A DNA stretch of 64,000 nt, taken from NCBI GenBank assembly GCA_044892505.1, contig CM097882.1, forward strand, positions 13,888,001-13,952,000, in the 5' to 3' direction. Numbering within the stretch: position 1 is the stretch's first letter; every line of letters begins with the position of its first letter. Origin of the DNA: Schmidtea nova (taxonomy: Eukaryota). Below are positions 2-55,277 of the stretch, piece after piece. Made by a program: the position numbers and the translations under genes. Under the pieces are notes generated by a model. The model was given only the letters and a program-made list of their open reading frames with translations. It was not told where the DNA came from and made no database searches.

Positions 2-2665
2 AGAGAAGCAGATGAAATATTCCTCACAGAAGAGAACAGACAAAAAGAATTGATAGAGGAATTTAAAGAGGTATTGTATAAACAACCATTTGATGATAAC
101 GAAACACTGAGAATAATCAATAAAATAAAAGTTAATGGGATTGAATTAGACAAGCTTAGAAATTTGATACCAATGATGGTAAAGAGGCAAAATATAACAA
201 AAGTATTTGAATTGGAAATAGAAATAAAAGAGATGTTAAAATGTTATGGAGAATATATAAGAAAAAACGAAAGATTGCACGAAACACTAAATGTAACGAT
301 CGAGTCAAACGATAACTACTTTTTCAGTAACAAACAACGGGTACATCCCTGCACTAAAGTGAGCAAATTAAAACGAATGGTAAGAGCCAAATGGCCAGGA
401 ACCATAGGAGAGAAAGATGTAATAAAATTATATTTTAACAGAATAGAATTATTAAGTGACGAGTACTTAATCGATTATGGGATAAACCCAATAAGTGATA
501 ATATTGTGGTAGCCACAGTAGAAAAACGAATGATCGATGAAATAGTGACGCCAGTACCGTCGGTTGAGCTGAGTATAAATGAAGAAAACGATTTTGATAG
601 ATTATTTAGGCTATGGGATAAATCACCTAGCGAAACAAAGAAATCAGTAATGGATGAAGAAATTATATTTAAACCTATAGATGAAAAGTATAGTAACTTA
701 CAAGAAACAATAGAAAGAATAGCTGAGGAAGCAAAAACAAAAGATGCAGAAACATCAAAACGAGGTAGAGGAAGACCTCGAAAATCAGAAATAATAGATA
801 AATCGGAGAATAGAAAGACAGCAGAACGATTAAGAGAGATTACAAATCAACATAAACATGAACAACCAGAGTATCAAGACGATAATAATGACGTAAACAA
901 AATAAAAGAAGTAATAAAAGCAATGAATATTAAGCTATTTCCAGAAACAAAGCCAACAGTACTAATTGAAAATATAACTGAAAGGATGATGTTAATTAAA
1001 AAGGATACTAAAGAACTAGCTACAGAGGAAGCAAATGAAAAAACAGTGTTAAAAATCCTGTTTAATACAGGGATAGATAAAGATAAAATAATAACGGCCA
1101 TGGCATACTTGGCCGCAAGATATAAAAAGCTCATAAAGGAAAATCCAAAAGAGCAATTAGAAAAAGTAGCAACAATGATGTTTAAAAGATTGAAAGTAGA
1201 GGCAATACCATGGATAAAAAAGAAAGGAGGATGGAAAGTATTATATGATAAAGATACGACGAATAAAGAGAGTGATACAGATGATGTAATAAAACAATTA
1301 ATAAAGAAAGCAACAGTAAAACCAAAGACAGAGAGTAAATCGATAACCTCCATAGTAATAGTCATAATCACTTTGTTATTAGATTTAATCAAGGGGGGCA
1401 ATGCAATGGTAGCATATGATTGTCAAAATCCAAAGTGGGGACAAAAATACTCACTGTTAGATGTTGAAAATTGCCCTGAAGCAAATCCAACTAAATTAAT
1501 CATGTCAGAGCCTCAAATATTCCATGTTTATCAAGAATCAGACTTTATTCATACAGAGGCTAAAGAGTGCATAGTAAAGTATCAGGAGGAAGCATATATA
1601 TGTCATGTTGGGGCAAGAACAGTGTTAAAACCTACGTGGACACCCGAAGCAGTAATATTGTCGCCAATAGAGTGTGAAGATGCATTTAAAACAAAGAAAG
1701 TAAAATATAGCGGTCATAAAGGAATAGAACTAGAAGCAAGGATAGGGGCAAAAATGAGACAAGATGTAAATGTTGTGGGATGGACATCAAAAGGAGGATA
1801 TTGTGAAGGAGGAGAATATACAATATGGGGCGAAAAACTGAGTAATGTTGTAGTAAGGAGACACTACATGGTAGAACTGAGAAAGTTCAAAGCATCATTC
1901 GACAGCAGCTCAAAGAAAATGATGATATACAAATTTTGTAGATTAGAAGAATCTTATTGCGATACAGGAGAATCAATGCTAATATACAAAATAGATAAAT
2001 ACGATTGTCAGTTAACAAAATTAAAATCATTAAAATTTAGGGAAATCAAAGGAAAACAGTTCACAGAAGTAGACTCAAAAAGGGTGAGAGATCAAAAAAG
2101 GAAAACAACAATTGTACAAGAAAAAGATACACCAACAATATATATGTCAGAATCTGAAAACGAAGCAATGAGGTTCGTTAGTAAAAGGAAAAGTGTAAAA
2201 TGTGGTAAGGAAATAATACAAACTAATTATGAAGGGATATACATAAGCAAAGAAGAAGTCAAAGATGCAAAACAAAAAGTAAATAAATTCGACGTCAAAC
2301 TTGCATCATACTTCAACAATAAAATCGATTTTTTCTATCATAACCAACTAGTACAATTAGATAAAGTATATCAATCAACAATTATGAGCGATTGCAAACT
2401 CAACAGAGAAATATTAAGGACAAAAATGGCAGTGGCGGTAACAAACCCAGATTTAATGGCACCAATAATCTTCTCAGAAGAAGGAACATTTGCAAGGATA
2501 GTAGGAGAAGTGATACAGACATTTCAATGTAAACCTGTTAGTGTATCGTTAGCAACAAATAATCAGTGCACTAATGAATTACCGGTAATATATAAAGGAG
2601 AAAGGGTATACCTTCAACCAATTACTAGAATATTAACAGAAAAAACATATATACCGAGAAAATAG
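2..2665 (+). pseudogene. Element A polyprotein N-terminal part: ubiquitin-like (~290-530), AT-hook (~760-785), Bcl-2-like (~890-1250), signal/anchor (~1345-1405), chuvirus-like glycoprotein ectodomain (from ~1406)
   Basis: Frame is open from position 2. Motifs: VHPCTKVSKLKRMV...KLYFNRIELLSDEYLIDYGI (Ubl); RGRGRPRK; LFNTGIDKDKIITAMAY and PWIKKKGGW (BH1/BH2); AYDC...SLLDVENC...ECIVK (Mono/Chu-type G). Ends in a one-base frameshift at ~2660. Confidence 0.8.
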
Positions 2666-3799
2666 AAAAATGCACTAACCTATTAGACCCATTATACAAA
2701 ATAAATGACGAAATGTGGATATCTATGTCAGATAGAAAGGAGGCAATGAAACCACTCAAATTAGAACTCATAGAGCTAGAAAAAAGATTAGAGTTTAAAG
2801 AAATCAACGATATGGACAGCAAGGGTATATATACGAGAGAAGCTATAGAAAGTGCAAGAAAACACATGTTATTTCCAAACGAAAAAGAAAGAGTACTTTC
2901 AATAATGGTTAACAGAGTTATCGAAGGAAGTTACGGAGGAAATTACAACTTTGATGTGTTATTATCAAAAGAATACTTTAAAAAAGTAGCATATAAAGTA
3001 CTATATAGCATATGGGGATACTTTGCAGTCCTTGGAAACATGTTTTCTACAATCTTAGGTATATATTATACGGTTGCATTACTAAAAATGATATGTTCTT
3101 CTCTAGTATCACTGAGACAGCTAAAACAAGTATTTGGAAATTCATATAAATTATTAGCATGTTTGTGCCCATTTATAGCTAAATATCTTATTACGGCGAA
3201 ACACGACAAGGAAATACGTTTAATAAAAGTCCAAAGGAATGAAGAAAGGCAATTATTGGTAGATGATGAAAACGATGAGGAAATAATTAAAGCGCATATA
3301 TCACATGAAGGAAATGTACCACAACAAGGACTATATGAAAACCAAAGAGAACAACTAAAAGAGCTACAAGAAAATATAGAAATCAAAATTCCTAGAGAAA
3401 ACAAGAATTGTCACTGTGAACCTAAAAAGATATATGGTTGTTATAGCTTAGAAGTCGAAACAATGGAACGATTAGATGCAGCAAACGAAGCAAGACCAAG
3501 ACTTAAAATAATTATAAACAATATAATCATAAATGCATTAGTAGATACAGGAGCAGCAACATCCTTAATTAGAGAAGATCAACTGACAGATGATCAGAAA
3601 AGAAATATTATGAGCACAACGGATAAAGTAGTATCGTTATCAGCACATTGTATTCCACTAAAGGGAGACATAGAACTAATAGTCGAAACACCAGAACAGG
3701 TAATAAACCACATATTTAAAGTGGTGCAAGAATGTAATAGCATATGTATATTGGGAATCGATATACTCAACAAGTTAGAAAATTGCATTATAGATTTAA
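2641..3799 (+). pseudogene. Element A polyprotein continuation: glycoprotein C-terminus with TM segments, then retropepsin protease (first copy, cut by the insertion)
   Basis: The shifted frame reads IEKCTNLLDPLYKINDEMW...; hydrophobic YSIWGYFAVLGNMFSTILGIYYTVALL; ALVDTGAATSLI. Confidence 0.85.
2848..3799 (+). repeat. 952-bp direct repeat, left copy (partner 11871-12822)
   Basis: Both copies run from GAAAGTGCAAG to ATAGATTTAA and their translations are identical. Confidence 0.95.
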
Positions 3800-4472
3800 T
3801 AATTAATAAAATTTTATTTCAATAAAATATGATAATTTTCCAATGGGACATAGCTCAACATGGAGCATCCCATACTGACAATATTCTAGGGCAGAAGAGT
3901 CTGAAATATCTGGATCAATTGGATGATATTCAGGGTTTTCTCGACTCGATTGTCACTCGAATTTGCCTGTATTGTCCCTGGCAGTGAATGTGATCTTCAT
4001 CGGATTTGGATTCCGGCATTGCAATATTGGATAAACTTCTCTTTGATTTCGAACAATCGGAATCATTGAGGTGTTCTATTGTCACTTGAAATTGTTTGTA
4101 TTGTCGTCAGTGGTAAAGGTATTCTTCTTTAGATTTAAATTCCGGATTTTCAGTTCTTAGTAAGTTTCTCCAGATTTTGTCAAGTATTCGAAAATGTACA
4201 ATAATTATCTTTAGGTTTTCTTTAAAGATTAAAATTTCCTTTTGATTAAGCTAAAGGAAAAATAATAATTAGCTAGACGCTGTTCCTGGACGAGGAAACA
4301 GTGTTTATTCACCGGAGCAAAACGTCAAGAAAAAGAGGGTAAGATGTTTTCAGGTCAAAGATAGAAATTTATAAACAAAATGAAGTAGTAAATAAGAAAT
4401 AATTAAGAAAGGAAAGAAAAAAGGGTAAATAAAATTGAATCAAGAAAAGAAAAAACCCCTCCAAAACTAACA

Positions 4473-4566
4473 AGCTCATCCACACGAGAGGAGAGAACAC
4501 ATTGTTCATCTCCAAATTTATATTCACCATTAGGCATTTGAGTTTCAGTTGGAATCATTTTTGAAA
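4473..4566 (-). repeat. 94-bp exact repeat of 11781-11874 (encodes the first 29 codons of ORF1)
   Basis: Identical AGCTCATCCACACGAG...ATCATTTTTGAAA. Confidence 0.95.
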
Positions 4567-4732
4567 AGAGAAGAATTAAAAGAGATTATTTAAACAATGC
4601 TATGATATTTCAAACTTTTAATTTAAATTAAAAAAAAAATTAAATAAATATCTAACAAAGTTAAGTAATTGTTATCAAAAATAAAAAAGGAAAAGGAAAT
4701 AAATTTAAAAAAAAAAAAAAAGAAGTTTGAAA

Positions 4733-4852
4733 AGTTTCACAGCACCTCGTATTCCCAGGCGGTCACCCATCCAAGTACTAACGAGGCCTTAACCTGCTTA
4801 ACTTCCGAGATCGAACGACATCGGTTGAATTCAGACTCGTTTAGTTGTTGTT
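4733..4852 (-). rRNA. 5S rRNA: 5S rRNA gene; nt ~19-120 well conserved, 5' ~18 nt replaced or overlapped by the retroelement ORF end
   Basis: Minus strand reads CTGAATTCAACCGATGTCGTTCGATCTCGGAAGTTAAGCAGGTTAAGGCCTCGTTAGTACTTGGATGGGTGACCGCCTGGGAATACGAGGTGCTGTGAAAC, followed by Pol III terminator T-runs. A and C boxes are recognisable. Confidence 0.92.
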
Positions 4853-6241
4853 AATTCGAATGAATTGCTCCTCGTTTTCGAAAATGGGTAGTGTACCATT
4901 CTTGTGGAAGTACCATCGTTTTGCCGAGTGTGCAATATTACTAATTGCACACTTTTTTAATAACCCAGCCACCTGGCCTTTATTTATGCCAATTTTCTGA
5001 AGGATCTGAGGAGTTTCTACAGGAAAAGAGCCAAGAGCGCCTATAATGCAAGTATCGAGTTCAACTTTAAAGTCTGGCTTGACAGTTTGAATATCGATTT
5101 TCAGAGAGTTGTAATTTTCCAAATTCAATAAATTTACACGCTCAAAGTTACATAAAGAATCACTCGGACATTTAAGGTCAACAAGGAAGATTCTTTTTCT
5201 AAGAACATCAGTTATCAGCAAATCCACCCGCTCTTTAGAACTCGGAACAAGTGAACAGGCATGGTTGACAACAACAATTAGGTTTTTATTAAGTTGGAGA
5301 TGATTAGAAATGAGTTTAAGGCAAGCATCGTGTCGTTCAGAGCCCAAAGTCATATGAACTTTGCACGATTGAAGTACATGTGATGAGGTTTCATCCTCAT
5401 CATGACATCGACGACAGAGTCTTTTCTCTCCACTATTATAAGGCTTTGCAAGGGTGGAAAGAGTGTTGGTGCGTGCTCTATGGACAAAGTTCCAAGCAAA
5501 CTCGGATAAATCACTGCGATAGATAGCTTTGTTTACTGTCGGTGAAAGCTTTACAGATGAAGCGATAATGTTTGAGACACAGCTTTTTTCCCATTTAACC
5601 AAGTATGAATCATTGAGCGCTAAGTGCAACACTTTTGCCGTGGTCTCACGTTCGTCCGGAGTTACAATACATGTACCACGTGCGTTCGTATTAATATAGA
5701 GACATAGTACATTATTGGTGATAGTAAAAGTGATGTTGATGTCGTGCGTCTTCTCAAAAAAAGCAATCGCAATCCTGGCTCTTTGAAATCGAGTTTTCTT
5801 TCCAGAATGGGGAGAAAGAGACTCTTTTCCATTGAGCCATTCAAGACTTTCCTGAAGAGTTGGATTTTTTATCCCAAGACGTGGACTGGTGATAAAAGCT
5901 AAAGAGTCAAGATTAATTTTCCTTGTAAAGTCACACTGTGACGTGATTAATCGAAAAAAGTGTGTGATAGTCTGTGTGTGATATTCGTCGAGGAGATCAA
6001 CACAGTTTGCTCCCCCATTTTCAGTTGAATTGTAGAAATAACTCACTTCCGAGTGATTAGGCAAAAGCAGCATTTTTCTTAAGGTTTTCCTTAACTGGCT
6101 AGTGATGTTAACTGAAAGATTTTTATTATCATAAGATTTTGAAAGTGCACTAGTTTTAATTTCACGGGTTCTAAAAGGGAAGATCAAGCGAGAATGGATA
6201 AATACTTTGTAAGCTTTAAGTTTTTGCCACCCAAGCAAATC
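4841..6241 (-). pseudogene. NeSL-like ORF2 C-terminal part: RT thumb, CCHC knuckle, RLE endonuclease
   Basis: GGANCVDL, CRRCHDEDETSSHVLQSC, RHDACL, ERVDLLI, LVDLKCP. Confidence 0.9.
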
Positions 6242-9200
6242 CTAATCAGCAAGTTTTTTGGTGTCTTTGAGTGCCTCCAGTAGAATGTCGTAAGGACTTT
6301 GGTCAGTTCCTTCGCCAACTGGCACACCTAGGTATTGATAAAATTCATTAGACAGTAGTTTTTTTATTTTAACTCCATTGATTGAAATTTCACTGTCAAT
6401 GTGAATTCTAGGAAGTTGCAGATAAGCACATTTCTCTGGCCGATATTCAAAGCCTATATTGGTTGCAGTTGTGACAGCAGTGTTAATGAGTTTTTGCAGG
6501 TCATTAGGAGATTTAGCGAAAATTGCGATGTCATCTGCATACGCGAGAATTTTGACAGATGATTCTCCAATAGCAAAAGCATCACAGACTGTTCTGGAAA
6601 CAGCTTCCAACACAGGATTAATCGCCAAAGCAAACAAAATCATGGAGATGGGACATCCTTGCTTGACACCCTTTTTAATTGGGATCTTTGGTGTCAGAAT
6701 AGGACCACAACTATAGAAGGAGCTTGTGTCAGAATATAAAAGTTCTAAGATGGAGGTAAAGTCTTCACTTACCCCAGTGTATCGGAGTAAGGACCACATG
6801 TAATCATGTGGGACACTACCAAAAGCATCTTTTATGTCGAGCCAAGCAATGGAAAGAGGACAGTTTTTACTATATTTGGAATGTTCCAGAGCAGCAGACA
6901 GAATCGAGTTGTGTTCAACGCAACCTTCATGTTGGGAGCCACCTTTTTGTCCAACATGTAATAGTTTATTAGAGTTTATCCAGCGTGCAAGACGAGAGGC
7001 TAGACAGGACGCAAAAACTTTGTAGATGACGGATAGCAAGGCAATCGGGCGCCAGGATGATATATCTGAATATTTATCATTTTTATTAGGTTTCGGGATT
7101 AGAGTGGTTTTGTAGACCTTCCAACTGTCCGGTATGGACTTCTCTGTAATGATCTTGTTGAACAAGAAAGTAAGTATATGACCATCAGGATCTAGACGCA
7201 ACAAGTCACGATATTGTAATCCATCAATACCAGGACTAGTGTTGTCAGCCCTCCTAAGTTCATACATCACTTCCCTATTCGAGAAGCATTTCAGAGGAAG
7301 TACATTTTGAGAGTGTTTACAAAAGTCAAATAGTTTCTCCCAATGCCCACGTGCAGGTGTTTCATGAGAAAAGTTTTTAACTATGTTCTGAAAAGTTGGT
7401 CGAGCCGGTACATCGAAATTGTTGATGACCTTATTGACAGCTGACTTCATATCTTTCATGAATAAATCGATCAATTTATTTTTGCTAATTTTAGAAGTTT
7501 TAATTTTGGTTCCCAAGTATGGTTTTTTAGCTGGTTTCACTTTTTCAGGGAATTGCTCCATAATCGCGTGAATAATTTCATTTGTGCTATAATTTGCCCA
7601 TTTAATTAAAAATAGTTCAGCATTAGTTCTCTTTTGTTTTATCGGAACTCTCAATATAGCTTTATGAATAATTTTAGTGTTACTTGGGTTTTCTATATTA
7701 TCGTGCTGCCTGACAAAGATAAGCAAAGAGCCAACCACGTCTCCAATCTCGCGCAAGTTTAAATTTACAAGGGGCAAATTTTTCGAGAAATTATTAATAA
7801 ACGCACACAAGAGAATTTTACTAACAAGACCTGAGCTGCGGATGTCATGGGGACATTCAGAAAGATTCAAAACGCGGCCAGGTGTATCTTTTATGTCATT
7901 TATTTTATTTCTCAGAATTCTGCAAGTAGACAGATAATTGTCATTCACAGTTAAAGATGTTGGGTTTACAAGATAAAAGGTGTCAACACTATAATCGAGA
8001 ATGAGCAAAATTTCACGATGTTTAGGGGGAGCAACAATCGCAAAGATGATTTGTGATTTGCATATATTTTCAAAATTCAGAAAATCATTTATGTGTTGAG
8101 TACAATCGTCAAGAATAGCCGTGCACATGGTCACACTCAGTAAAAAAAAAGTCTTGGGTAAATTTAAATTATCAAAAAACATTGAAATTATTTTATCCGA
8201 AATTTTAGAATTAAGTAAGTTTAGATTCTGAGAGATTTCATTTGTTTCCCTTAATTTTATTGAGTTTAATGATTTGTGTATATTTAAAAAATGAATAACT
8301 TTATTAAACAAAAGTTTCTCAAGAAGCTCAATAAAAACCGACGCAAAGAGAATTGTATCATCAGAGATGTTGGGCACCAGTTCCAAGCCGTGGTTAGGTT
8401 TAAAAGAAATGTTTGTTGATAGAAAGAACTTATTCAAGTAGTCAGTAATATTTTCGCCGATGCCAAGTAAACGGTCAGAAATAGGTTTTTCTTGATTGTT
8501 AAAAACGTAACTTGCACCATGTGTAATAGAAAAAAGATATAAACACCAGTAATTATCATTCGGGATAACACTGATGACATGGTTAATCCCTAGAAAATTT
8601 TTTAACGTGACATTTTCTCTAATAAATGAGTTATTTCTAGAGATTATATTTAGTGTAAGTTCTTGGGACAGGACCAAGATGTCTTTATGGTCTTTAAACC
8701 ATTCGGTAATCAAAGACGAGATGCAGGCATTACGTTTCATAAGGAAGATGTGGTCGTGTTTATTAGAAATATTTAGAGTTGTGTCTTTTTTCACTCTCTT
8801 AGGGTTAGTGAGTTTAGATTCACCACCTCCAGATGATTTTGGGACCATGTTATTTAAAGTAAGTTTAAATTGGTAGACATCTTTTCTGATATTTTCTATA
8901 AAATCATCAGGAAATTTTTGCCATGTACCACTTATCATCATAGCATAAGCACAGATGTAAGGCCCACAGTCATAGTTATTATTTTGGTAGACAAAGTTTT
9001 TATGTGGGTGGAAAAATAGTGCAGCTTTAAGGTTAAAAAGACGATTCAAAGCGATTGTAGTTTGAAGAGCGTCGGCTCTATTGGTCAACGAATGGCGGTT
9101 GTTGAAAAGAGGATCTACAAAGTATGAAGTTAAAGAAGTTTTACAATACACAAAAATAATCCAATGAGTTTTATTAATATTTATTGGACATAGTAGAGTT

Positions 9201-9466
9201 TGCGCAGATATTACTCTGTCTGGCATTCGAAAAATGGTTTCGCAAAGATTTGCCCGTAAGATTTCTATTTGAAAGCATTTTATTGGAGCAAATTTAGGGT
9301 CATTGATATGACATTCAAGATAGTTATCAATGTCATCATCAGTAAACCATATTTTAGGGTCACGCAATATATTTGTGATTTTAGATGGTTTAAATTTTTT
9401 GGGAAATGTGCTGTCTGCATCAGTCTCTGTTGAGATTGGGGCAGATATTGAGACTGGTGCAGGCAC
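6242..9466 (-). pseudogene. NeSL-like ORF2: Ulp1/C48 protease domain(s) + reverse transcriptase, cut by in-frame TAG
   Basis: RT motifs as above. TAG at 6244-6242 is followed in frame by DLLGWQKLKAY. Confidence 0.92.
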
Positions 9467-9472
9467 ACAACT

Positions 9473-11866
9473 TCATTTGTTTTTGATAGCCGTACGTTTG
9501 GGTTTTTTAATAGGCTTTTTCGAAGAGTCTTGAGACTCACTATCAATTAATTCAGTGTTTGATGTCAAATTTTCATCAATATCGACAGGAAGTTTATTTG
9601 TAGGGTTTTCTACCAAATTGTAATTTATTTCGGCTTCATCGCATTCAGGAATAGAAAAAAGAGGCTCGTTTACAAGCTTTTCAGTATTCTCATTGTTCCC
9701 CATCACAGGCTTATCAACCTTTTCTATAGCAGGTTTTTCATTGACAGTTAGCTTAATAGAGCATAAGATTCTAGATATACCTTCGCTCATTTCTGGAGTA
9801 CAAATCTTTCTACAGTACTTGGGAACGCGGAAAGTAAATTTATTTTTTAAAAGAAAAGTTTTTTTATCTCTAATAAGAAAGAATAAGAGTCTTTTCGCTT
9901 TCAAGGTGTTTGAGTTATCCAAATCGTCTTGGAATTCGTTAATTCCACGTCCTATATTTTCAAGTGCCGTTAGTTGTTGTGCTTTATTTGGCAAAAGATT
10001 TTCGATAGAATCAAAGAAGTTGTTAATATCCAAAATAGTTTTTGGAGAGATGATGTTGTTTATTTTATCGATCTCTTGAAGTATAAAAGTTTGTTTGAGT
10101 TTTAGGAAGCGCTCTTGGCAGCTTTTGTTATAATAGGAGTTGGTAGGTAGTTTTTTAATTAGTTCCATAGCCCAGGATTCAATATTATCGCAGCATAAGG
10201 AGTCTACACTCTCAAGCTTCACAATCGAGTGCATTAGGAAGCAGTTACGAATGTAATTATAAACATATATATTAAATGATAAATTTATTTTGCATTTTAA
10301 AGATCCCTGTAAGTTTAGGTAATTTAAGTAAAATATTATATTTATTAATTTCTCAGGTGACTGAGGCTGTTTTAATAATTTATTGAACTCAATGTCCACA
10401 TTTGACATTTCTACAAAGTCTAATAAGCCAAGATTAAACATTATGTCAGACGCACCATTATCGTGCAGTCCAACAGAGTTTTGAAAAATTTTATTTTTAA
10501 CAAATTTACCCCCAACAAATGAAATCTCATTAGGAAAATGTTTTATAGTTTTTAATTCTTTAATTAAATTAATTAATAAATCAGGATACCTGTTCACGTT
10601 TTCCATAAAGTAGAGCTTTGGAATTTCAGGAAAGGATCTTGTTAATTCTTCCAATTCAGAGCGAGAAAGATCGATTGGGTTTAGATCAGTGCTGTCGCCA
10701 ACTAATTCATCGGAATTAATAAGGTCTAACAGAAGAAACTCTCCATTTGAATACTTTAACTGAGAATTGATTAAGAAATTCGGAATCTCTCCACTTTGTT
10801 TTAGTTCGTCTAAAATTTTATTAATTCGGATCTCCCGATCCTTAACATTTTTTATCGTAATAGTTCCTGAAAATCTTTTTGTGAGGGCATAAAGAAACTT
10901 CTTTATGCAAAGAGAGGCAGGAATAAACTTATTACGGTTACTCAAGGGTTCAATAACTTTGGAGCCTATTAGGTAAGTTTTATTTTTAGATTTTTTACCA
11001 TCAAGAGCGTTTGGTTTGTAATCAGTGGGCCCAAACTCAATTAGGACACAAATATATCTATTTCTATAAAAGAGCTTACTAAATCCAGCGATACCCAGCA
11101 AGTTGTCCGTTCTCGGAATTTTACTTAGTAAATTATTTATTTTAGAAAATTTCTGTGCTGAATCTCTTAATTTAATCAATTGGGAAAGTTGTGGGAATGA
11201 TTCAAAAAGTTTTTGTCTTTCTCTTTTATAAAGGTGACGTGGGAAACTCGTTAAGAAACGTTCAACCTTTGAAAAATGTTTTACATGACTTATATCAGGA
11301 TTTTCCCCATCAAACTTAATCTTAACTATGGAATTTGACTTCTCAGGTTCAGCAGACTTCTTTTCTACTTCCACTCCCACAAAAAAACTTTCATTTGATT
11401 TTCCATTGATCGAATTGTCCAGTTTAAGCTCTGGAAAATCAACTTTTTCTGAATATGCTGAAATCAACTGAGATTTATTTTTATTATCATTTTTAAATAA
11501 ACTAATTTTTATCTGGGACGGCTCAATTTTATCCCCTTTCAAGTCCCCGACCAGAGAAATCCTCCTATTATCTCCAAAAGTAAATCCATCAACATTTGGG
11601 TGCTGATCCACAGATCGAACACTATCAGCATTTCCAATCTCATACAATCGTTGCGATTTCGCAAGATTGTCAAAAAAAGAAACATTATTTTTATCAAAAA
11701 ATTGTGTTTCATTGTTATTTAAATTTAAAAAATTAACAATCAAATCAAGCTTACTAAGGATTTTCTTGAAAGAAGCATCCAGCTCATCCACACGAGAGGA
11801 GAGAACACATTGTTCATCTCCAAATTTATATTCACCATTAGGCATTTGAGTTTCAGTTGGAATCAT
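9473..11866 (-). CDS. NeSL-like element ORF1 / N-terminal region (~800 aa, no recognised domain)
   Basis: Long ORF, same frame as ORF2, separated from it by a single TGA. Confidence 0.7.
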   Translation of the reverse strand: MIPTETQMPNGEYKFGDEQCVLSSRVDELDASFKKILSKLDLIVNFLNLNNNETQFFDKNNVSFFDNLAKSQRLYEIGNADSVRSVDQHPNVDGFTFGDNRRISLVGDLKGDKIEPSQIKISLFKNDNKNKSQLISAYSEKVDFPELKLDNSINGKSNESFFVGVEVEKKSAEPEKSNSIVKIKFDGENPDISHVKHFSKVERFLTSFPRHLYKRERQKLFESFPQLSQLIKLRDSAQKFSKINNLLSKIPRTDNLLGIAGFSKLFYRNRYICVLIEFGPTDYKPNALDGKKSKNKTYLIGSKVIEPLSNRNKFIPASLCIKKFLYALTKRFSGTITIKNVKDREIRINKILDELKQSGEIPNFLINSQLKYSNGEFLLLDLINSDELVGDSTDLNPIDLSRSELEELTRSFPEIPKLYFMENVNRYPDLLINLIKELKTIKHFPNEISFVGGKFVKNKIFQNSVGLHDNGASDIMFNLGLLDFVEMSNVDIEFNKLLKQPQSPEKLINIIFYLNYLNLQGSLKCKINLSFNIYVYNYIRNCFLMHSIVKLESVDSLCCDNIESWAMELIKKLPTNSYYNKSCQERFLKLKQTFILQEIDKINNIISPKTILDINNFFDSIENLLPNKAQQLTALENIGRGINEFQDDLDNSNTLKAKRLLFFLIRDKKTFLLKNKFTFRVPKYCRKICTPEMSEGISRILCSIKLTVNEKPAIEKVDKPVMGNNENTEKLVNEPLFSIPECDEAEINYNLVENPTNKLPVDIDENLTSNTELIDSESQDSSKKPIKKPKRTAIKNK

Positions 11867-11870
11867 TTTT

Positions 11871-12822
11871 GAAAGTGCAAGAAAACACATGTTATTTCCA
11901 AACGAAAAAGAAAGAGTACTTTCAATAATGGTTAACAGAGTTATCGAAGGAAGTTACGGAGGAAATTACAACTTTGATGTGTTATTATCAAAAGAATACT
12001 TTAAAAAAGTAGCATATAAAGTACTATATAGCATATGGGGATACTTTGCAGTCCTTGGAAACATGTTTTCTACAATCTTAGGTATATATTATACGGTTGC
12101 ATTACTAAAAATGATATGTTCTTCTCTAGTATCACTGAGACAGCTAAAACAAGTATTTGGAAATTCATATAAATTATTAGCATGTTTGTGCCCATTTATA
12201 GCTAAATATCTTATTACGGCGAAACACGACAAGGAAATACGTTTAATAAAAGTCCAAAGGAATGAAGAAAGGCAATTATTGGTAGATGATGAAAACGATG
12301 AGGAAATAATTAAAGCGCATATATCACATGAAGGAAATGTACCACAACAAGGACTATATGAAAACCAAAGAGAACAACTAAAAGAGCTACAAGAAAATAT
12401 AGAAATCAAAATTCCTAGAGAAAACAAGAATTGTCACTGTGAACCTAAAAAGATATATGGTTGTTATAGCTTAGAAGTCGAAACAATGGAACGATTAGAT
12501 GCAGCAAACGAAGCAAGACCAAGACTTAAAATAATTATAAACAATATAATCATAAATGCATTAGTAGATACAGGAGCAGCAACATCCTTAATTAGAGAAG
12601 ATCAACTGACAGATGATCAGAAAAGAAATATTATGAGCACAACGGATAAAGTAGTATCGTTATCAGCACATTGTATTCCACTAAAGGGAGACATAGAACT
12701 AATAGTCGAAACACCAGAACAGGTAATAAACCACATATTTAAAGTGGTGCAAGAATGTAATAGCATATGTATATTGGGAATCGATATACTCAACAAGTTA
12801 GAAAATTGCATTATAGATTTAA
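11871..12822 (+). repeat. 952-bp direct repeat, right copy
   Basis: Matches 2848-3799. Shares 4 bp (GAAA) of microhomology with the end of the insert. Confidence 0.95.
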
Positions 12823-13388
12823 CAGATAATACGATAAAGAGAAAAGCAATTAAACATAAATCCAAGTTCACAGAAGTTGTTGCATTAGAAGCATTTGAAT
12901 TGGAATATGAATGCGATCATATTATTCCCTTAAAAGTTAACATCAAAAGTGAGGACACTTTTATTTTTGAGCCAGAAACGGCAATTATACAAAATCAGAA
13001 TATAATGCTAACCAATGAATGCGTAATTCCGAGAAAGGGAATAATACCATTGAGAATAGCAAATTATGAAAAAAGTAATGTTAAAATACACAAAGGTACG
13101 AAATTGGGAAAATTATTCAAAGGTGAATTAGAAAAAACGTACGAAGTTAGTGAGATAAGTGTGATGAATGATAACGGCAAGAAAGTAGTCGAACCTAGTA
13201 AGATAAATAATATAAAATCATATGACAAAGTAAAAATTAATAATGAATACTTAACAATAACACAACAAGCACAACTACAAACATTGATAGATAAATATAG
13301 TGATGTTTTTGCAAAACACGAATTTGATCTAGGAGATACCGATATAATCAAACATGTAATAGATACAGGTAATGCGAGACCAATATAA
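11889..13388 (+). pseudogene. Element A: duplicated glycoprotein tail + retropepsin protease + post-protease linker
   Basis: DTGA. Ends at an in-frame TAA that is followed by QRPYSVPY...WASPIVPVKKKDG. Confidence 0.9.
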
Positions 13389-16300
13389 CAAAGACCATAC
13401 AGCGTACCATACAAGTTAAGAGAGGAAATAAAACGACAAATCAAAGACCTAAACGATGCAGGTGTAATAAAACAGAGTTTTTCACAGTGGGCATCACCCA
13501 TTGTACCCGTTAAAAAGAAAGACGGAGAAATAAGAATGTGCATTGACTATCGTAAATTAAATGATGTAACAGTAAAAGATTCATACCCATTCCCAAAAGC
13601 ACAAGAGCAATACGATAAACTTAGGGATGCTAAGTATTTTTCAGTTATTGACGCAAATAAGGGATATATGCAAATTCAAATGGAGGAAGGGGATGCGGAA
13701 AAAACAGCATTTGTTATCGAGGATGGTTTATATGAGTACACACGATTACCTTTCGGGTTAACTAACGCACCAGCTACATTTCAGCGACTAATGAACACAA
13801 TATTAGTAAATGTACAACATTGCGCAGTTTATATGGATGATATACTAATATCATCAAAAACATTTGAGGAACACTTAAAAGATATAACAAATGTACTCGA
13901 GAGACTAAGAAAAGCAAAAATTAAAATTAAACCAACTAAGTGTAAATGGGCAGAACCTTCGGCGTTATTTCTAGGGCATATAGTTACAGTAGAAGGGATA
14001 AAACCAAATCCAGAAAAAATAGAAGTTGTAAAGAAATTCCCAATACCAAAAACAGTACAACAAGTACAAGGGTTTTTAGGTCTAACAGGGTACTATCGTA
14101 AATTCATACAAGATTATGCAAAGATAGCATCACCGATAATAGAACTAACAAAGGGAATTAGAACAAAAGGAGAATGCAAAGATGTGTTAATAGTACAAGA
14201 AATTAACAACAAAGTTAACAAGATACAAAAGAAGTGGACAAAGGAACACCAAGAAGCATTCAATAAACTAAAAGAAAGATTGATAACAGCACCAGTGTTA
14301 AGATACCCAGATTTCGAAAAACAGTTTATAGTAATGACGGATGCCAGCGGGAAAGCCGTAGGAGCAGTCTTGGGCCAAGAAGAAGAGAAAGGGAAAGATT
14401 ACGTAATAGCATATGCCAGTAAAACATTAAAAGGAGCACAGCTGAGGTATTCAACAATAGAAAAAGAATGTTACGTAATAGTATTCGCCCTAAAACAATT
14501 CAAACCATACATATATGGGACTGAAGTGATAATAAGAACTGACCATAAACCATTAGAAGGTTTATGGAAACATAAAGATACATCAAGTAGATTACTTAAA
14601 TGGGCAATGAAAATACAAGACATGCACCTAAAGATTATATATAAACCAGGTAGAATAAATAAAAACGCAGATGCACTATCAAGAATACCAGAATTAGGAG
14701 CACTTGAAATATTTGCACTGGTAGCAGAAAAGCCAATCGATATATATGAGGAACAGATGAAAGACCCAGAGAACAGTAAAATAAGGAATGAAATCAGAAA
14801 AGAAAACAATTCAAAGTATAAAATATCAAAGAAATTAGTAGTAATAGAAGATTTCAATGGTAAGCAACTAATAGTAGTACCTCAGAAATTAAGACAAATA
14901 CTCCTACTACAATATCACGATGGAGCATTAGGAGGTCACTTATCATCTAGAAAGACAGCAAGTAATTTATTACAAAAATATTACTGGGAAGAATTAAAGA
15001 AAGATGTTAAGAGATGGTGTAACGCGTGTACAATATGTGCAACAAGAAAAAATACAGGTACAAAAACAAAAGCACCATTACATCCCATTCCAGCAACGAC
15101 ATCACCAATGGAACTATGTGCAATGGATTTTCTATGTAAATTACCTACTACAATTAATGGGAATAAACTAGTATATAGTAATTATTTTACTAAATGGGCA
15201 GAAGCATTTCCAACAAAAGACGAAACAGCAGAAACAGTTGCTAAATTGCTTATAGAAAAAATTATTTTCAAGATAGGCACACCCAAAAGATTATTAACAG
15301 ATAAAGGAACAAATTTTACTAGCGAATTAATAAAAAGAGTAGCTAATATTTTTAATATGCAAAAGATTAACACAACAGCGTATCACCCTCAAACTGATGG
15401 ACTAGTAAAAAGGTTTAATGGTACATTACTAAGCGGACTAGCTGTTTTTGTAGGAAAACATCAAAATGATTGGGACGAATACATAAGTCAATGCACATAC
15501 ATTCATAATATCACTCCAAACGAAACAACAGGGTATTCACCGTATTATTTAATGTTTTTAAGAGAACCAGCAACACCAATAGATACAATATTTGAACCTC
15601 GAGTATCACAATATTTAGATGCACCAGATTATGTCACACTAATGCAGGAAAAACTGCAAGAAGTGTATAAAGTAGCCAATCTAAAAGTCAAATATAGACA
15701 AGAACAGTACAAAGCCGACTACGACAAAAATAGTAAACCACACAACTTTAAAGTAGGTTATAAGGTTAGACTTATGTCACCACAAGTAGGAAAGGGAAAG
15801 ACAACAAAACTAGCAAGACCATATAAAGGTCCATATGAGGTAGTAAAAGTAATAAATGAGAATTTACACTTACAAAAACATAAAAACGAGGATCCAATAG
15901 TAGTACATGTCAACAGATGCAAGTTGGCGGAAGCCGAGGTCACGATAGATAAACCTCACAAGTATAATCTAAGATCTCATAACAAACTAATAATATCAGC
16001 TATCTTCTTAACAATCATAACATTCGTTGGCTCAACCAAAACAATAGAATTTGACAAAATATTAATAAAAATAGCAACAAACGAAGTTAGAGTATTTATC
16101 ATAAATAGAGGAGTAATTGATATATACATGCAAACAACGAATGGGAAAAATCCAAAGATGATAAAAGGAAAAGACGACAGAACAACCAACGAAATCGAAA
16201 GAGGAAGCTATATTAATTTCACAAAACTAACACCTAATACAATATACAGAATCTGCATACAGAGAAACACAGATACAACAACATGGAGATGCAAAAAAAT

Positions 16301-16769
16301 AAAAACAGAACAATTACCCAAGAATATAACAAAAAATCATAACATAACAAAAACACTCGATAGAATAAAAAGCACAACAACGACATCAGATAATATACTA
16401 AATACCACACCACATACAAACGAAATACCAACAAGCACTGAAATAGCCAAATTCCAAAAACAATACAATGCCAAAAAACAAAAACAAGAACCTATCAAAA
16501 TAAGGCAAGGAAGACCAATAGTGATACATAACTTAGAGGAACTACAAGCATTTCGTAAAGAGGATAAAAAGCCACATTGGCCTTATTATATCATCACAAC
16601 ATCAATAATAGCATTAACAATTTTAGCTTTAATAACTAGCGTACAAATTTATAAAAAGTACAAATGGAAAAGGCAGCGGTATCGGAGCCGACAGGTCAGA
16701 AATGTACCAGGGCATTTCCATTTGGGCAAATATATACCAGGTGAATATACAAAATCCACATTGGTGTAA
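13389..16769 (+). pseudogene. Element A: RT-RNase H-integrase fused to signal + FN3-like + Thr-rich stalk + TM; third integrase catalytic residue is K
   Basis: CIDYRKLN, LPFGL, YMDD, TDASG, H..ALGGH..C..C, TDKGTNF, GLVKRFN (E>K at 15408), GPY; then LIISAIFLTIITFVGS, LTPNTIYRICI, TM YYIITTSIIALTILALITSV. Confidence 0.92.
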
Positions 16770-17186: not shown

Positions 17187-17308
17187 AAATCAATATATCA
17201 AGAAATCAATTCGATACCAATCAAAAACAAAGATGAATCAAAATCAACCTCATTTCAATCAATCAAGAACCTACCAGAAATACACTTGTTTTATGAAACA
17301 AACTCAAC

Positions 17309-19297
17309 ATGAGTTTTTATAAAAATCTACTGAACAATATATGTACTGATGGAACCCCAATTACAATTCGCAGTTTCCCAAATCAAATATGTATCCCAAA
17401 CGACATGAAAGTCGAAATAGAAGAACGGGAAATGCATCTGATAAAATTCAATGAGGCCCGAAGAGTGAAACTCAAAGAGCTTATTGGAACCTTCGACAAA
17501 TACCAAAACGTCGACAAAGAAGTTGCCGAAAACAAAAGAATCCCTCACAGATTAATATTCCACATGACAAAAACAGAAGTTGCAATATGTCAAAATAAAA
17601 TCCCGTTAATTGTCACAAGCAACTGTTCAGCAGTTATCAAGTTAATAAGAAAAGACAGAAGCATGTCAAACGATCTCAATGAGCTGACAGTGCAGATGAA
17701 TAACCTACCATGTGTGATAGCAATCGAAGTGCTATATATCCCGACAATCCAAAATCCGTTCATAAAATTAAACCCAATACATTCAATCCTACAAATAAAT
17801 GAAGATATGATCAACCAGAAGATATCATTCACGAATCAAGAATTAACGACTGAAGAAAGGCATTCATTAACTGTAATTGTGGATATAAAAGTAGTTTAAG
17901 ATATAAACAAAAATCTCAGACCAGTGGAAATTTGTATCAGAAGCAAAAAAGGAGCAATTCTGTATAACAAGTTCATCACCCCAAGAACGAAAGTTGAAAA
18001 ATTCTACACGGAAAAAACTAAAGCTACAAAAGAAAACATAATTGGAAATGAAGACGAATATAAAGCCTTAAATGAAATTCGAAACATTCTCTATGGAAAG
18101 ATCATAGTTGGATTCAACATCATAGATAAGTTAAAACTATTGACAATAGATCTGGACAACATTATGGGCATAAGAGAAATGGCACAGGATCGATTCATGT
18201 GTTCTTTTGTAAAAAACGTGGCACCACCAAAAATAAAAATATCAAATTTGGCTTACCAGGTAATCAATTACCATAAAAGTTGGCATAAAGATAAAAAGTT
18301 AAATGATATATTGAGACAACCAGAACCATTCTCAACAAAGATCACCACAATGCTATTAAAAGTTATCTACGATATCACAGAAAATAAATGGGAAGAAGTT
18401 GTCAAATGGGATTCCGCAACACTTCTTAAAAGGAAACAAGCAAATGGAGAAGAACAACTAGAAACAATATTCGAAAACGAAACAGAGAGCGAAGCAGAAA
18501 GTGAGATAGAAAGTGAATATGAAGATGGAGAAGGCATGGAGCCGTCCCTTGGGGAATCAATAAAAACCAATCATAATAAACCAAAAAAGTCATTCATGGA
18601 AGAGCTCATGGACAGTGACGACGATGAACTCATGATCATAAAAGAAGAAATACCACTTATCGCTCCAACTAGAGGAATCAAAGCAGAACCCAAAATTCAA
18701 AATATTCTATATGAAAGAATGGACGAATGTGATATAGATGATGAATATTTCTCAGCAGATGAGAACATAGAAGAACCTTCAACCAGCAGTAACGACATCA
18801 AAATGGAAGAAGATAATGAAGAACCATCAACAAGTAATAAATACAACATAATGGAAGAGGATATCGGACAAGAACCAAACGTTGAAATGTTAGCCGACTG
18901 GACAGAACCAGAAGAATCAGATTTCATAATAGACAAAGACAAGAAATACGTCTCAGAAAAAGATCTCTGCACTCATTTTGGAAGACAAATTGAGCACGAG
19001 GAGACAATAAACCTTGCGATAAAAAATAGATTTCGAAAAACAACAATTCAAATAAAAGAGAAAAGAATTGATTTAATATTGTGTGACAAGGGTAATGAGG
19101 ACATTACTTTGACGGCCCGGGGAGGAATGTTGGATGATGAAGGTAAGCCCATCAATACATTCCTCTTATCCGAAAACTATAGTGTGGGAGGCGGCAGGTA
19201 CAGAATAAATATTTATGCAGAGCCCGTTCAAGAAGAAGCAAATATCAATCAATCTCAATACGGTAGATCAAGACAACAATATCCATTGGGCATTTAA
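17309..19297 (+). pseudogene. Accessory ORF of element A with a degenerate REXO4/ISG20-like DEDDh exonuclease domain and an acidic region; one in-frame stop at 17897
   Basis: The two ORFs share a frame. VIVDIKVV*...ILYNKFITP...ILYGKIIVGFNI..KL..L...IRE follows the ISG20/REXO4 pattern with acidic catalytic residues altered. Confidence 0.65.
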
Positions 19298-25250: not shown

Positions 25251-25485
25251 TCAAGTGACTTATCTTGTCAATTACCCGATTTTCAGGTTGTTTGTTTACG
25301 TGTGTTCATTTTATCTTTGATTATTCTGTTAAATAACAGATTTATTCGTTCCATCTAATTCGATTCATTTGTTATATAGGCGCTTTGTGGTGGTCCGGAT
25401 GATGTGTTCTCATTTTGGCTGTTTATTTGTAAGCCTTTTTATCTTTGTTAATTCCTAATAGTAGTAGGAAGTGAGCCCGCCAGAT

Positions 25486-27811: not shown

Positions 27812-28240
27812 TTTAAATATCCAACTCTCCCCTTCTTAAGACCTTTTCCACTTCAGCCACTCGATTCTTCTTCCTTTCATACCTTCTTGCGAGTGTTTTA
27901 CTCGTTATTTGAGTCTGAAATCAAATGGTCACATGTCATTGTGGCGTTCATGTATATAAAACAGATAATGGATAATTCGGGTTCAAATTATGAAAATTAT
28001 TTTCAATGGTCAGTACAGGTATATTATTTTTATTTAATTATATTATTAATATTATTTTAGATTATCGAAAGTGAAATATGTCCCTGGGTTCAAGAAAATG
28101 GACAATGGCAAAAACTACTAGAATTGGCCGAAAATAGTAGAACTATTAGGAAAACCAAAGAAAGATTGAAAAATCTGTTGAAAATAACAATTGGACTCTG
28201 TAGTATTTATGCTATTGTAAATTTAATTCATCGAAAATAA
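27812..28240 (+). CDS. Bcl-2-like gene (BH1-like, BH2, C-terminal TM) with 42-nt intron 28019-28060; 5' end uncertain
   Basis: LFESEIKWSHVIVAFMY...WSVQ|IIESEICPWVQENGQWQKLL...ITIGLCSIYAIVNLIHRK*. The phase-0 GT-AG intron joins in frame. Confidence 0.75.
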
Positions 28241-51282: not shown

Positions 51283-54200
51283 ATGGAGGAGAATCAGAAA
51301 GTTACCAGTGTAAACTCGGAAGATAATTTATTAGAAGAAGAGCAGAAAATAACCAGTCCAAACGTAGAAGATAATTTACAGGAAGAAGAAAAAGAAGTAG
51401 AAACAATGAATATGCAACTACAACAGGATATCGAAGAAAAAGTAAATAAAATGATAACCGAATTATCAGACGTTGAAATTGAAAGAAAGGGAAATGTATA
51501 TGAATTTTCAGTAAAAGATATGGAGGGAGAAGAAAAGAAGAAGTTTGTGGAGAAATATAACCGAAAAAGAAGAGAAAGAAGAAGCAATGATGATACATGT
51601 AGCATGGACGAGAAAAGGGATGAATCTATGACAATCAAATTAGAAGAAGTGGCACAAAGATTGTTAACCATTACCATAGAAGAAATGACGAAAATGAATC
51701 AAAAGTCGGAAGAAAAGAGGAAATCAGCGAAGCTCGAAAGAATAAAACAAACAGAGACGTCAAAGACCGAACGATTAATCAGTAACCTAAGCAAGAGTGC
51801 AGGAAATCAATGTGAAACAACAACTGAATTACTAAAATGGGTTATAAAAAATAGTGCAAATATATCAAACATGAGATTGATAGTGAGAGAAATCGAGAAA
51901 TGCAGAGTTTATGCCCTTGGTATTCAACACAATTTGATGACATCATGAGAAAATGGAAACAACTAGAACAAACAAACGATGATCCACAGATGTGTAAATT
52001 AAAAGTTCAGTTTCCGAGTCTAGAAAAAATAAAGATGAATGTATCATTAACAACAAAGATCAAAGAGATAAAAGAGAGATTACCATTTAACTTACCATTT
52101 CACTTAAAATATGATGGAGAATCGCTGGATGATGATATAGAAATCGGTGTAACCCCGATACAAATCGAAACAAGTAATAAATTAACTGTTGATAAAATTT
52201 CAGGAAGCGAGTTGACCAGAAAAGCAAGAGGTGAAGATAATCCCGAAACAACGATAATTGCAATGATGAAAACTCCAGCTGGTCCAACACTTACAATTAA
52301 CATCGAAGTTAATGGCGTAAAAGTAGACGCAATGATAGATACTGGCGCAAATATATCAGCAATAGATATCGATATGATACCAGAAATGTTACGGTTATGC
52401 ATCGAGAAAACATCAGTAGACGTAATAACATGCAGCAAAGAATCTGTGAACATCGGTGGAAAAATATGGACGGACATCGAATATAAAAATGTAAAAATAT
52501 CAACTTATTTGACGGTAATAAAACAACTGGGTGCCTCATGCATTATTGGAACAGACTTAATACCAAAATTGTTAAAAGGATCTGTAATCAATTTGAATAC
52601 GATGAAGTTGAAACACCAAATTGAAGAAAATTGCACACGAGAAACAATAATAGAACAATCAAGTCAAGAAATGACCAGAAAAGGACAAGTATGTATGTTT
52701 CGAGAGAATACAAATGACGATTGGCTACATCGTATATTAACTACGAGCAGAAAAGTAAATCAGCCAACAACAATATTTGAACAACCTAAGATAGTTGACG
52801 ATGTAAAAATGGAGCACCGCAAAAAGATGGAATTGATCATTGAAATTACCAAAGAAATCATGCCAGAATGGTCAAAAAGTAAAGATCTATTCGAAATATT
52901 AGGAGGAGTAAGCCTAATGGTTGAGGAATATGCCAAAGGAAATGAAACGACAGAAGCGATGAATACCATAAAAGAAAGATTACCAATATTATTTACAATT
53001 GCCAGTTTTAAAGATGAGATACCATTGTACCACGCAATAAAAAGTGGGAATGAACAGAGAATGTTTGAAATCTTAAACTCATGGAAAAGTGCAAGCAACA
53101 TACCAACACGAAAAACTGGAAAGATCAAACACCCTTGATGATAGCAATTGAAAAAGGAGGATCCAGGAAACTCATAGCAGAACTGATGAGAACCGGATCA
53201 AGTTTTAAAGAAAGAGATGATAAAAATGAAACGGTGTTATCATATGCAGTGCAAGCAAATAACCATCAAATAATCAAATATATTATGTCAAATGCGACAG
53301 AAGAAGATATTGAAGTGCTCAGTTCAGATCCAAATCCATTAGTAAATGCAGTGAACAAAGATGCCGACGAAACAACAGCAAAAATGATTAAATGGTTACA
53401 TCCAGTTACGCATGAAGGAGTGATAAATGTCAATGACAGATTTGAAGATGGTGAAAATATAATCATGAAAAGAGCCATGAAAAGAAAATGGAAAATGTAT
53501 AAAACGATTAAAGCATTGCTGCAAAGACCTGATTTTAGATTCACGAACAACAAAAAAGAAAAAGAAAGAATTGGATCTAAAAGACATGAATTATATCAGC
53601 GAGTCATCATATGGAAAGAAAATATAAAAGAAAGCAGAATTCAACGAATCTGGAACAATGCTAAAGATGAAATAACCAAGAGAGCAAATATAAAAGCCGA
53701 TGCAAATGAAATAGCTAAAAGATATGAGGAAATAATAAAATTAATAAATGTCGAGGACGACATTTTAAATAGAGCCGAGGATGGTTCTGATGATCACAAT
53801 AAGCCTGACGATGAAGATGAAGAAAATGATAACAACAAAACAAAGAAAGATGACAATGAAAGTATCAACAGAAACAATGACAAAGATGAGAAAGACGATG
53901 GAAAAAGCAATAACGATGAAAAGGGAACGAAAGTGATGAACATAGCCAAGAAACTTCAAATTATGAAAAACGAACAGCATGTCTACATAAAACTCGAATT
54001 AAAGACATAATATTGCTGATAATGATGCTGTCAGCATTGAAAGGAACGGAAGCTGATGATAAAAGAAAACCAGTACAAGTATTATTACAAGGAGCAGATA
54101 ATGAAGAAGCATGTTGGAGTAGCATCAAATTGCAAAGTAAAGGAGATAATCCAGTCAAATGCCAACGAGCAGAAGGAGGAGAAATCCAAATAAATGGATT

Positions 54201-54390
54201 GAAGCGGGATGCAAAATACAAAATCTGTGTTTACAAAAAGAAAGCATCACAAGAAATGTTTAGAACACTCGTATGTCAGACAGTAGCACATAATGGTTTA
54301 AAAGTCATCCAAGAAAACATAAAAGTCATAGTAACCGACGAGCCAGATGAGAACATCAGAGTGTCGTCGAAACGCAAGTTGTCAGAGTAA
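51283..54390 (+). pseudogene. Element B polyprotein: helical/Gag-like region, ubiquitin-like, retropepsin, ankyrin repeats, acidic linker, signal, FN3-like; three single-base frameshifts
   Basis: VSLTTKIKEIKERL..LKYDGESLDDD (Ubl); AMIDTGANISAI; PLYHAI, QTPLMIAIEKG, TVLSYAV (Ank); IILLIMMLSALKGTEA; INGLKRDAKYKICV (FN3). Confidence 0.8.
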
Positions 54391-55178: not shown

Positions 55179-55277
55179 AAATTTAAAACCAGTGTAAATA
55201 AAATGTAAAAATGTGAATATGAATAAAAACTTGGTATAAAAAAAAACAAAACGAAAAAAATTGTAAATTATTTTAGA

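Follow-up and report, generated by a model that had tools for sequence, protein, structure and literature searches.

Element A, a Burro-like gypsy retroelement of Schmidtea nova, encodes behind its integrase, and in frame with it, what is very probably a type I membrane protein, which would be the second surface protein of a polyprotein that also carries a viral-type fusion glycoprotein upstream of Pol. The element lies in a 64,000-nucleotide window (GenBank assembly GCA_044892505.1, contig CM097882.1, forward-strand positions 13,888,001 to 13,952,000), analysed here over its whole length and numbered from its first letter. The second surface protein is real, is conserved across a clade of elements of a known, Burro-like kind, and is apparently undescribed. 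As to its role, we tentatively read the 3′ end of the polyprotein as a non-fusogenic type I glycoprotein that may partner the fusogen in attachment or in polarised cell-to-cell spread, a reading of the sequence that we hold at a little short of an even chance.

A single uninterrupted frame on the plus strand, 13389-16769, contains reverse transcriptase (RT), RNase H and integrase together with the surface module. Its parts are as follows.

13389..15977, plus strand: Pol of element A, comprising RT, RNase H and integrase with H2C2, core, GPY and end motif (Pfam, translation)

15978..16034, plus strand: internal signal-peptide-like segment (hydropathy; predicted cleavage site)

16035..16316, plus strand: ectodomain of about 95 residues, a beta sandwich resembling fibronectin type III (FN3) domains (fold model, Foldseek, VIA, Atlas, weak Pfam match)

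16317..16586, plus strand: stalk of 90 residues with three N-glycosylation sequons (serine/threonine counts, sequons)

16587..16643, plus strand: transmembrane helix with a basic cluster after it (hydropathy, 19-mer 2.13)

16644..16769, plus strand: predicted cytoplasmic tail of 41 residues, ending STLV-stop (translation)

The Pol domains are matched by Pfam (RVT_1, E 4e-36; RT_RNaseH, 1e-35; Integrase_H2C2, 3e-18; rve, 1e-5). The integrase carries its GPY motif at 15828-15836 and its end motif, YNLRS, at 15963-15977. The signal-like stretch begins four residues beyond YNLRS, and the frame runs on for 263 codons to a stop at 16767. Such a tail might be a chance read-through into a captured, functionless fragment of a host gene, as this copy of A is dead (see below) and its tail alone has no significant database homologue: a word-indexed search gave none at E ≤ 0.01 among 1530 candidates of 463-2000 residues and 570 candidates of 145-462 residues, and a phage collection gave no match. 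Between 15975 and 16766, however, the module frame contains 0 stops, against 29 and 17 in the remaining two plus-strand frames, and 0 of 5000 nucleotide shuffles of this interval stayed open. Codon use in the tail follows that of the Pol of A (r 0.80, against 0.69 and 0.64 in the other frames, strand bias inflating all three values; 0.31 for the non-long-terminal-repeat (non-LTR) insert described below). With an architecture that also recurs over a deep clade, read-through by chance is largely refuted, and we consider it very improbable.

By hydropathy and inspection, the module has a type I layout, with a signal, a sequon-bearing ectodomain, a single helix and basic residues on the C-terminal side of that helix, whose orientation is accordingly predicted as type I. 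The signal core (15987-16031) reaches a Kyte-Doolittle 15-mer peak of 2.61 and is followed by small residues; comparable signal-like segments open the module in 11 database relatives. The ectodomain contains the L-x5-Y signature LTPNTIYRICI (16227-16259) and one N-glycosylation sequon, and in the fold model two cysteines on its last two strands could possibly form a disulfide. The first half of the stalk (16329-16448) is rich in serine and threonine, with 15 in its best 40-residue window against a maximum of 9 in windows of the Pol core. Over all 90 residues, serine and threonine make up 17% (24% with proline), and the stalks of relatives range from 11 to 28%. The C-terminal STLV, an ending that the sequence-only reading had passed over, fits the class I PDZ-binding pattern [ST]-x-[VLI], the binding itself being a prediction only. 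We hold this anatomy and type I topology with high confidence. The sequence-only reading had described a signal-FN3-mucin-transmembrane protein fused to integrase; the open frame, the signal-like stretch and the helix bear it out, support for FN3 is moderate, and the mucin domain was rejected as an overstatement of a short stalk enriched to 17% serine and threonine.

Relatives were sought with the integrase, since the tail of A alone gave no homologue, and the best 120 of 188 matches were taken. The top 12 integrase matches score 367-442 bits at 45-52% identity, the remaining listed matches 307 bits or less. A phmmer search added three further relatives, P0124, P0125 and P0130 (P and L numbers are our handles for database proteins and genomic loci). 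With the integrase end plus the A tail as query, phmmer gave 16 matches, nearly all confined to the integrase end; P0125 alone aligns across signal and domain (query 2-167 in phmmer, 1-115 in BLAST). P0126 and P0131, whose match is limited to the integrase end, were discarded as module homologues, as was P0128, a chance match to a repeat protein.

An integrase tree was built from A together with 119 proteins of the 131 retrieved, the 12 left out being aligned over fewer than 270 residues. It unites A with 14 relatives in a clade with a support of 1.0. A hydrophobic helix follows the integrase in 9 of the 14 clade members but in 2 of the 105 others (Fisher p 1e-8), and a C-terminal [ST]-x-[VLI] is found in 7 of 14 against 8 of 105 (Fisher p 2.5e-4), both tests ignoring relatedness. 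All seven motif-ending clade proteins belong to the nine that bear the helix, and when related pairs are counted once, the PDZ-type motif is present in six of eight helix-bearing lineages, A included. Tails between which BLAST detects no similarity keep this ending, a pointer to selection on the C-terminal motif. Two of 78 loci in a genome collection (L001 and L002, at 50% identity) supply the DNA context; these two and most of L003-L078 are eukaryotic gypsy contigs filed in bacterial or archaeal genome assemblies, presumably as contamination. L002 joins the clade and brings the relatives to 15, of which 10 show a signal and repeat after the integrase. The proposal that the second surface protein is family-wide is thus upheld by database relatives, among which P0130 has both Env and module, and not by way of element B, the second element of the window, on which it had originally leaned; the module is present in most of the integrase-clade relatives surveyed.

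The tails of these relatives consist of a signal, one to three beta-rich L-x5-Y repeats, a stalk, a helix and a tail. Identity between their ectodomains falls to less than 20%, while that of the integrase stays at 45-52%. In P0130, the monjiviral envelope protein (Env), proteases, RT, RNase H, integrase and module share one frame of 2,855 residues, so both surface proteins would be made 1:1 with Pol. An extra protease lies between integrase and signal in P0001, P0005 and P0130, accompanied in P0005 by ankyrin repeats, and the aspartic protease domain is present two or three times, ahead of RT and behind integrase, in P0001, P0005, P0008, P0009, P0124 and P0130. Between the proteases of P0009 and P0130 there are C2H2-like zinc fingers as well. 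On L001, the contig of P0003, a stop is followed in the same frame by more repeats and then by a stalk and a helix; L002 carries a signal and one repeat and reaches the contig end. P0011 has an additional signal-FN3-like-helix unit ahead of its protease (residues ~45-230), showing that the module can flank Pol on both sides. Tails containing tyrosine were seen by eye in P0001, P0007, P0011 and P0130.

Variation of this kind would also suit a membrane tether, in which the signal and helix mainly hold the Gag-Env-Pol chain or its assembly site on a membrane of the secretory pathway and the ectodomain folds but is carried along as an exchangeable passenger. What the ectodomain is and how many repeats it has differ between relatives, with an unrelated Cys-rich ectodomain in place of the repeats in P0010, yet signal and helix persist; the extra unit before the protease of P0011 fits as well. 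Env, however, already equips this chain with signal and anchor, as in P0130, and a tether would make up to three FN3 repeats and a conserved C-terminal ligand motif superfluous. We regard this explanation as improbable.

Several weak-to-moderate lines of evidence, none decisive alone, converge on the ectodomain of A being a seven-stranded FN3-type beta sandwich, an assignment that we make from the fold model with moderate confidence. Searched in isolation, the domain matches Pfam fn3 at 13.1 bits (E 0.11), below the curated cut-off of 25 bits and over the E-F strands only, as the sole family match; fn3 is not found when the whole A protein is searched. The best named Atlas clusters are all fn3 (0.88), a lead only by the grading of the tool itself. 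Single-sequence AlphaFold2 modelling gave an all-beta fold with eight strand segments at a predicted local distance difference test score (pLDDT) of 62.5 in one of five models, the others reaching 39-44. In the Foldseek list obtained with this model, FN3 domains take the top places and predominate (best E 0.021, probability 1.00, template-modelling score 0.52-0.58), with no match at E ≤ 0.001. VIA-align against fibronectin gave Z 7.0 (caution line 8) over 88 aligned residues at a root-mean-square deviation of 3.2, a tie with other Ig-like sandwiches. Single-sequence searches of the PDB gave nothing useful for the A or the B domain, and a viral structure library gave generic matches only (best E 0.016). 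Compared with animal single-pass receptors and adhesion molecules that carry FN3 (fibronectin repeats, receptor tyrosine phosphatases, neogenin, integrin beta4), the A domain shares the FN3-like fold, the E-F strand signature and the single-pass layout, but its identity to them is 9-19% and, by eye, the canonical Pro/Trp pattern is missing from its N-terminal strands.

A profile built from 11 repeats, among them those of A and B, matches fibronectin in the PDB at E 1.3e-5 and a single fn3 domain of PTPRF at 1.3e-4, at the top of 115 matches; the repeats were chosen around the L-x5-Y motif, so this match to FN3 is partly circular. Three of the 11 members match Pfam fn3 weakly (best E 0.025). 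When one protein at a time was left out, 16 of 18 repeats beat all 300 shuffles, close pairs helping each other. Three held-out repeats were equalled by 0, 0 and 4 of 2000 shuffles, and the P0125 repeat failed (152 of 2000 as good). Pairwise, A stands out in 2 of 21 tests (0 and 6 of 1000 shuffles). The proposed link between the A domain and its relatives draws on position, modelled fold, the P0125 alignment through the signal into the domain, and these two pairwise tests. Over the 560 open reading frames (ORFs) of the window, the relatives' profile left the A frame outside the top 12 and gave B only at E 0.88, and over 5230 locus ORFs it missed L002, though L002 scored against shuffles (4 of 2000).

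Upstream of Pol, element A comprises two further parts.

2..3825, plus strand: Bcl-2-like domain, signal, monjiviral fusion glycoprotein (the first surface protein) and protease (Pfam)

11850..13388, plus strand: second copy of the Env end and protease, with an in-frame stop before RT (blastn 99.7%, Pfam, stop codon)

Pfam gives Bcl-2 at E 3e-7, Monjiviricetes_fusion at 8e-50 and 8e-35, and RVP at 1e-7. The duplication spans 961 bp (2848-3808 and 11871-12831, 99.7% identical by blastn). This copy of A is dead: Env is broken into two frames near 2629-2665, an in-frame stop lies at 13386, and a non-LTR retrotransposon is inserted. The insert (window 4473-11874, minus-strand ORFs 4841-11953) encodes an Ulp1 protease, RT and a C-terminal zinc/nuclease-like region and is NeSL/R2-like by inspection; a 94-bp stretch of its own end recurs at 4473-4566, and the 961-bp duplication flanking it far exceeds a usual target-site duplication. 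Downstream of the polyprotein, 17297-19297 holds ORFs of 200 and 465 residues with an in-frame stop between them, the second nuclease-like by eye, with an acidic tract and no Pfam match.

Planarian Burro elements carry Bcl-2, an in-frame mononegavirus-like Env and then protease, RT, RNase H and integrase (PMC6431247). Element A has this order, and it is by domain order that we call it Burro-like. A dUTPase between protease and RT, a Burro feature recognised through HHpred in PMC6431247, has no Pfam match in A at 12852-13151, and a ubiquitin-like stretch that we saw by eye in A is without Pfam support. The further Burro criteria, a polyprotein of ~4,900 residues with Gag and a length of >30 kb with LTRs, extend past the window, beyond which the 5′ end of A lies. 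Likeness to the giant Burro/GYPSM1 gypsy elements extends to the AT-rich host DNA (~70% AT here) and to the cargo of element B (SUMO-like, ankyrin, MATH/TRAF, BIR-RING and coiled-coil). Unlike A, these elements are described in the text of PMC6431247 with no mention of fibronectin, FN3 or a post-integrase membrane protein.

Element B (window 42287-64000) lies between 99%-identical repeats, 42287-43440 and 62840-64000, and has the look of a recent, non-autonomous Burro-like derivative. Two of its stretches concern the module.

51855..54010, plus strand: SUMO-like domain, protease and ankyrin repeats, upstream of the module (Pfam Rad60-SLD E 7.5e-4, RVP 7e-6, Ank_2 5e-10)

53920..54390, plus strand: signal-like stretch and beta-rich L-x5-Y domain, with no stalk, helix or PDZ ending (translation, hydropathy, profile)

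RT, RNase H, integrase and Env are absent from B by Pfam, and tblastn with clade Pol proteins gives the protease only; B is non-autonomous because it has no RT, integrase or Env. The order protease-ankyrin-signal-domain equals the post-integrase part of P0005. In a protease tree, the B protease groups with a pre-RT one at a support of 74, and the tree does not assign it to either the pre-RT or the post-integrase kind. The Burro cargo types SUMO-like, ankyrin, MATH/TRAF and BIR are all found in B, whose cargo includes TRAF, an IAP with an in-frame stop between its BIR and RING parts, ORFs with ankyrin repeats or coiled coils, and a further RING ORF at 48533-48934.

The polyprotein of B had been read as ending in a signal and FN3, and FN3 as a module common to both elements. 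Both stretches are there, the signal-like one at 53998-54048 and the signature INGLKRDAKYKICV at 54190-54231, but the module frame (53920-54390, stop at 54388) differs from that of the ankyrin ORF (53069-54010), so that continuity of the polyprotein is at best presumed. Direct alignment of A and B is not significant (BLASTP E 0.067 over 19 residues; 62 and 83 of 1000 shuffles score as well). The B domain does score against the relatives' profile, at 6.8-8.4 bits, with 26 of 1000, 2 of 2000 and 5 of 2000 shuffles as good. It has no Pfam match, whereas A has its weak one, and its Atlas value of 0.85 is not for fn3. Its model (54049-54315) reaches a pLDDT of 54 with five strands and gives generic Ig-like matches (Foldseek E 1.2; Z 4.7 to filamin Ig domains). 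A module common to both elements is plausible through the relatives' profile, the likeness of B to A not being significant, and the B segment is a probable, though unproven, truncated member of the module family.

No transmembrane stretch was found in any frame of 54231-55230 (best 17-mer 1.06). This missing anchor has a bearing on an alternative raised in the sequence-only reading, an immune decoy. Such a decoy, or a mimic of a cytokine receptor, would be anchored to the membrane in A and secreted in B, and in its favour it may be noted that cytokine receptors and the poxvirus interferon-gamma binding protein, themselves FN3 folds, are among the fold matches. Those matches, however, tie with many unrelated FN3 domains; B is frame-broken and non-autonomous, so the lack of an anchor may be decay; and 9 of 14 relatives are anchored, most with a PDZ-ligand end, a majority that a decoy fits less well. 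We think a decoy quite unlikely. Two further membrane-protein ORFs of B, 60694-61521 (signal, Cys-rich segment, coiled coil, helix) and 61965-62525 (coiled coil, helix), have no meaningful Pfam match.

For an attachment or spreading role, the module would be made from the Pol chain, with which it is encoded in frame, and the route may be pictured as follows. The transmembrane helix of Env would return the chain to the cytosol for protease, RT and integrase. The second internal signal would re-enter the translocon, where signal peptidase would cut and release a type I glycoprotein. FN3 and stalk would then end up luminal or outside, anchored by the helix, with the tail in the cytosol. These topology steps are modelled on polyproteins of the flavivirus and alphavirus type, which are processed by internal signals. 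The element's own protease could free integrase from the signal stub, and several relatives carry an extra protease at that spot. The [ST]-x-[VL] end, conserved as a pattern, would bind host PDZ scaffolds and sort the protein to junctional or polarised membrane. In the least certain step, fast-evolving FN3 domains on a glycosylated stalk would bind the neighbouring cell and concentrate budding or attachment for the class III fusogen. A variable ectodomain, with one to three repeats and an identity that falls to less than 20%, is as expected of a host-facing binding protein.

In its most specific form, this proposal is of a two-glycoprotein entry system that arose within one multi-pass polyprotein in a deep clade of gypsy retroelements with Env. 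The fusogen, of monjivirus origin, would stand before Pol; a modular FN3 protein for attachment, taken from a host, would follow integrase and carry a PDZ-ligand tail that steers particles to junctions. We consider that version possible but doubtful; if true, it would mean targeted cell-to-cell spread, for instance into stem cells or the germline.

Several observations weigh against an attachment role for an FN3 protein. The A domain is not significant against the relatives' profile (59 of 1000, 294 of 2000 and 210 of 2000 shuffles as good). The Cys-rich ectodomain of P0010 does not score against the repeat profile either, so FN3 itself is replaceable. No module is seen in the deposited proteins of four of the 15 relatives (P0004, P0009, P0012, P0124), and linkage to Env is shown for A and P0130 only, the other proteins being too short at the N-terminus. 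Rapid divergence suits immune evasion or relaxed constraint equally. Finally, among the genes of the clade are Bcl-2, IAP and TRAF, which work within the host cell, and a host-modulating role would be equally in character.

The last point leads to a different function, in which the module is no particle component but a receptor- or adhesion-like modulator of the host cell whose tail, with PDZ-type and tyrosine motifs, would remodel junctions, polarity or survival signalling. The conserved C-terminal motif, the tyrosine tails of P0001, P0007, P0011 and P0130, and the apoptosis-control cargo would all serve such a function. Planarian genomes are shaped by Burro-type elements; an effect of these on stem-cell survival, and protection of stem cells by the IAP of Burro1, are reported, at second hand through PMC13465017. 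B retains a related segment despite having no Env, RT or integrase, yet its version is broken and without an anchor. Moreover, the module sits in the structural and enzymatic polyprotein at the usual env position, while the IAP and TRAF of B are separate accessory ORFs. On balance we find host modulation rather unlikely.

In-frame fusion of env behind integrase is known from the nematode BEL/Pao elements Cer7 and Tas. There, as in A, an internal signal and then a type I membrane protein come after the integrase, but the fused protein is the fusogen, whereas in A the fusogen lies upstream and the env slot appears to hold a non-fusogenic FN3 protein. P0067, a gypsy protein outside the clade, has its integrase fused in frame to what by eye is an F-type Env (residues ~455-965), in which a signal is joined by a furin-like site, a stretch resembling a fusion peptide and a helix. 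Among viruses, entry with two glycoproteins is familiar from the attachment protein and F of paramyxoviruses and pneumoviruses and from herpes gD and gB, and the Env of human T-cell leukaemia virus type 1 (HTLV-1) has a PDZ-binding motif. These systems offer an analogy of working, namely a fusogen accompanied by a distinct, variable surface protein, and a PDZ ligand at the C-terminus; unlike true relatives, they show no sequence or fold relationship to the module in our searches, the viral structure library having given only its generic matches. We know of no retroelement with a fusogen and a separate FN3 attachment protein.

Errantiviruses of the order GAG-ENV-POL, with Env of the herpes simplex virus (HSV)/gB type, are reported from Platyhelminthes, Nematoda and Bryozoa in bioRxiv 10.1101/2023.10.26.564294. 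They resemble A in having Env, a class III-type fusogen, upstream of Pol, and differ in that one envelope protein is described; in the accessible main text of that preprint, 'fibronectin', 'Burro' and 'PDZ' occur 0 times. We found no description of a post-integrase FN3 module in the literature searched, with 0 papers from the searches directed specifically at it, although Grohme 2018, Lee 2026 or Repbase may already annotate the region. 'Fibronectin' occurs 0 times in PMC6431247 and 0 times in the accessible portions of PMC13465017, PMC8532177 and PMC11410931, a check of running text. The module would account for a stretch of the Burro-type polyprotein that lacks annotation, and would extend the architecture to a clade visible in metagenomic contigs. 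For target-cell choice by Env-bearing invertebrate retrotransposons, a small, separable, clade-conserved surface protein with a PDZ-type tail would be a direct handle.

Between the two elements, window positions 25460-34554 form a palindrome of ~9 kb with assembly gaps in both arms. Its inner arms are 99.5% complementary over ~3 kb, and either a foldback element or an artefact of assembly could account for it.

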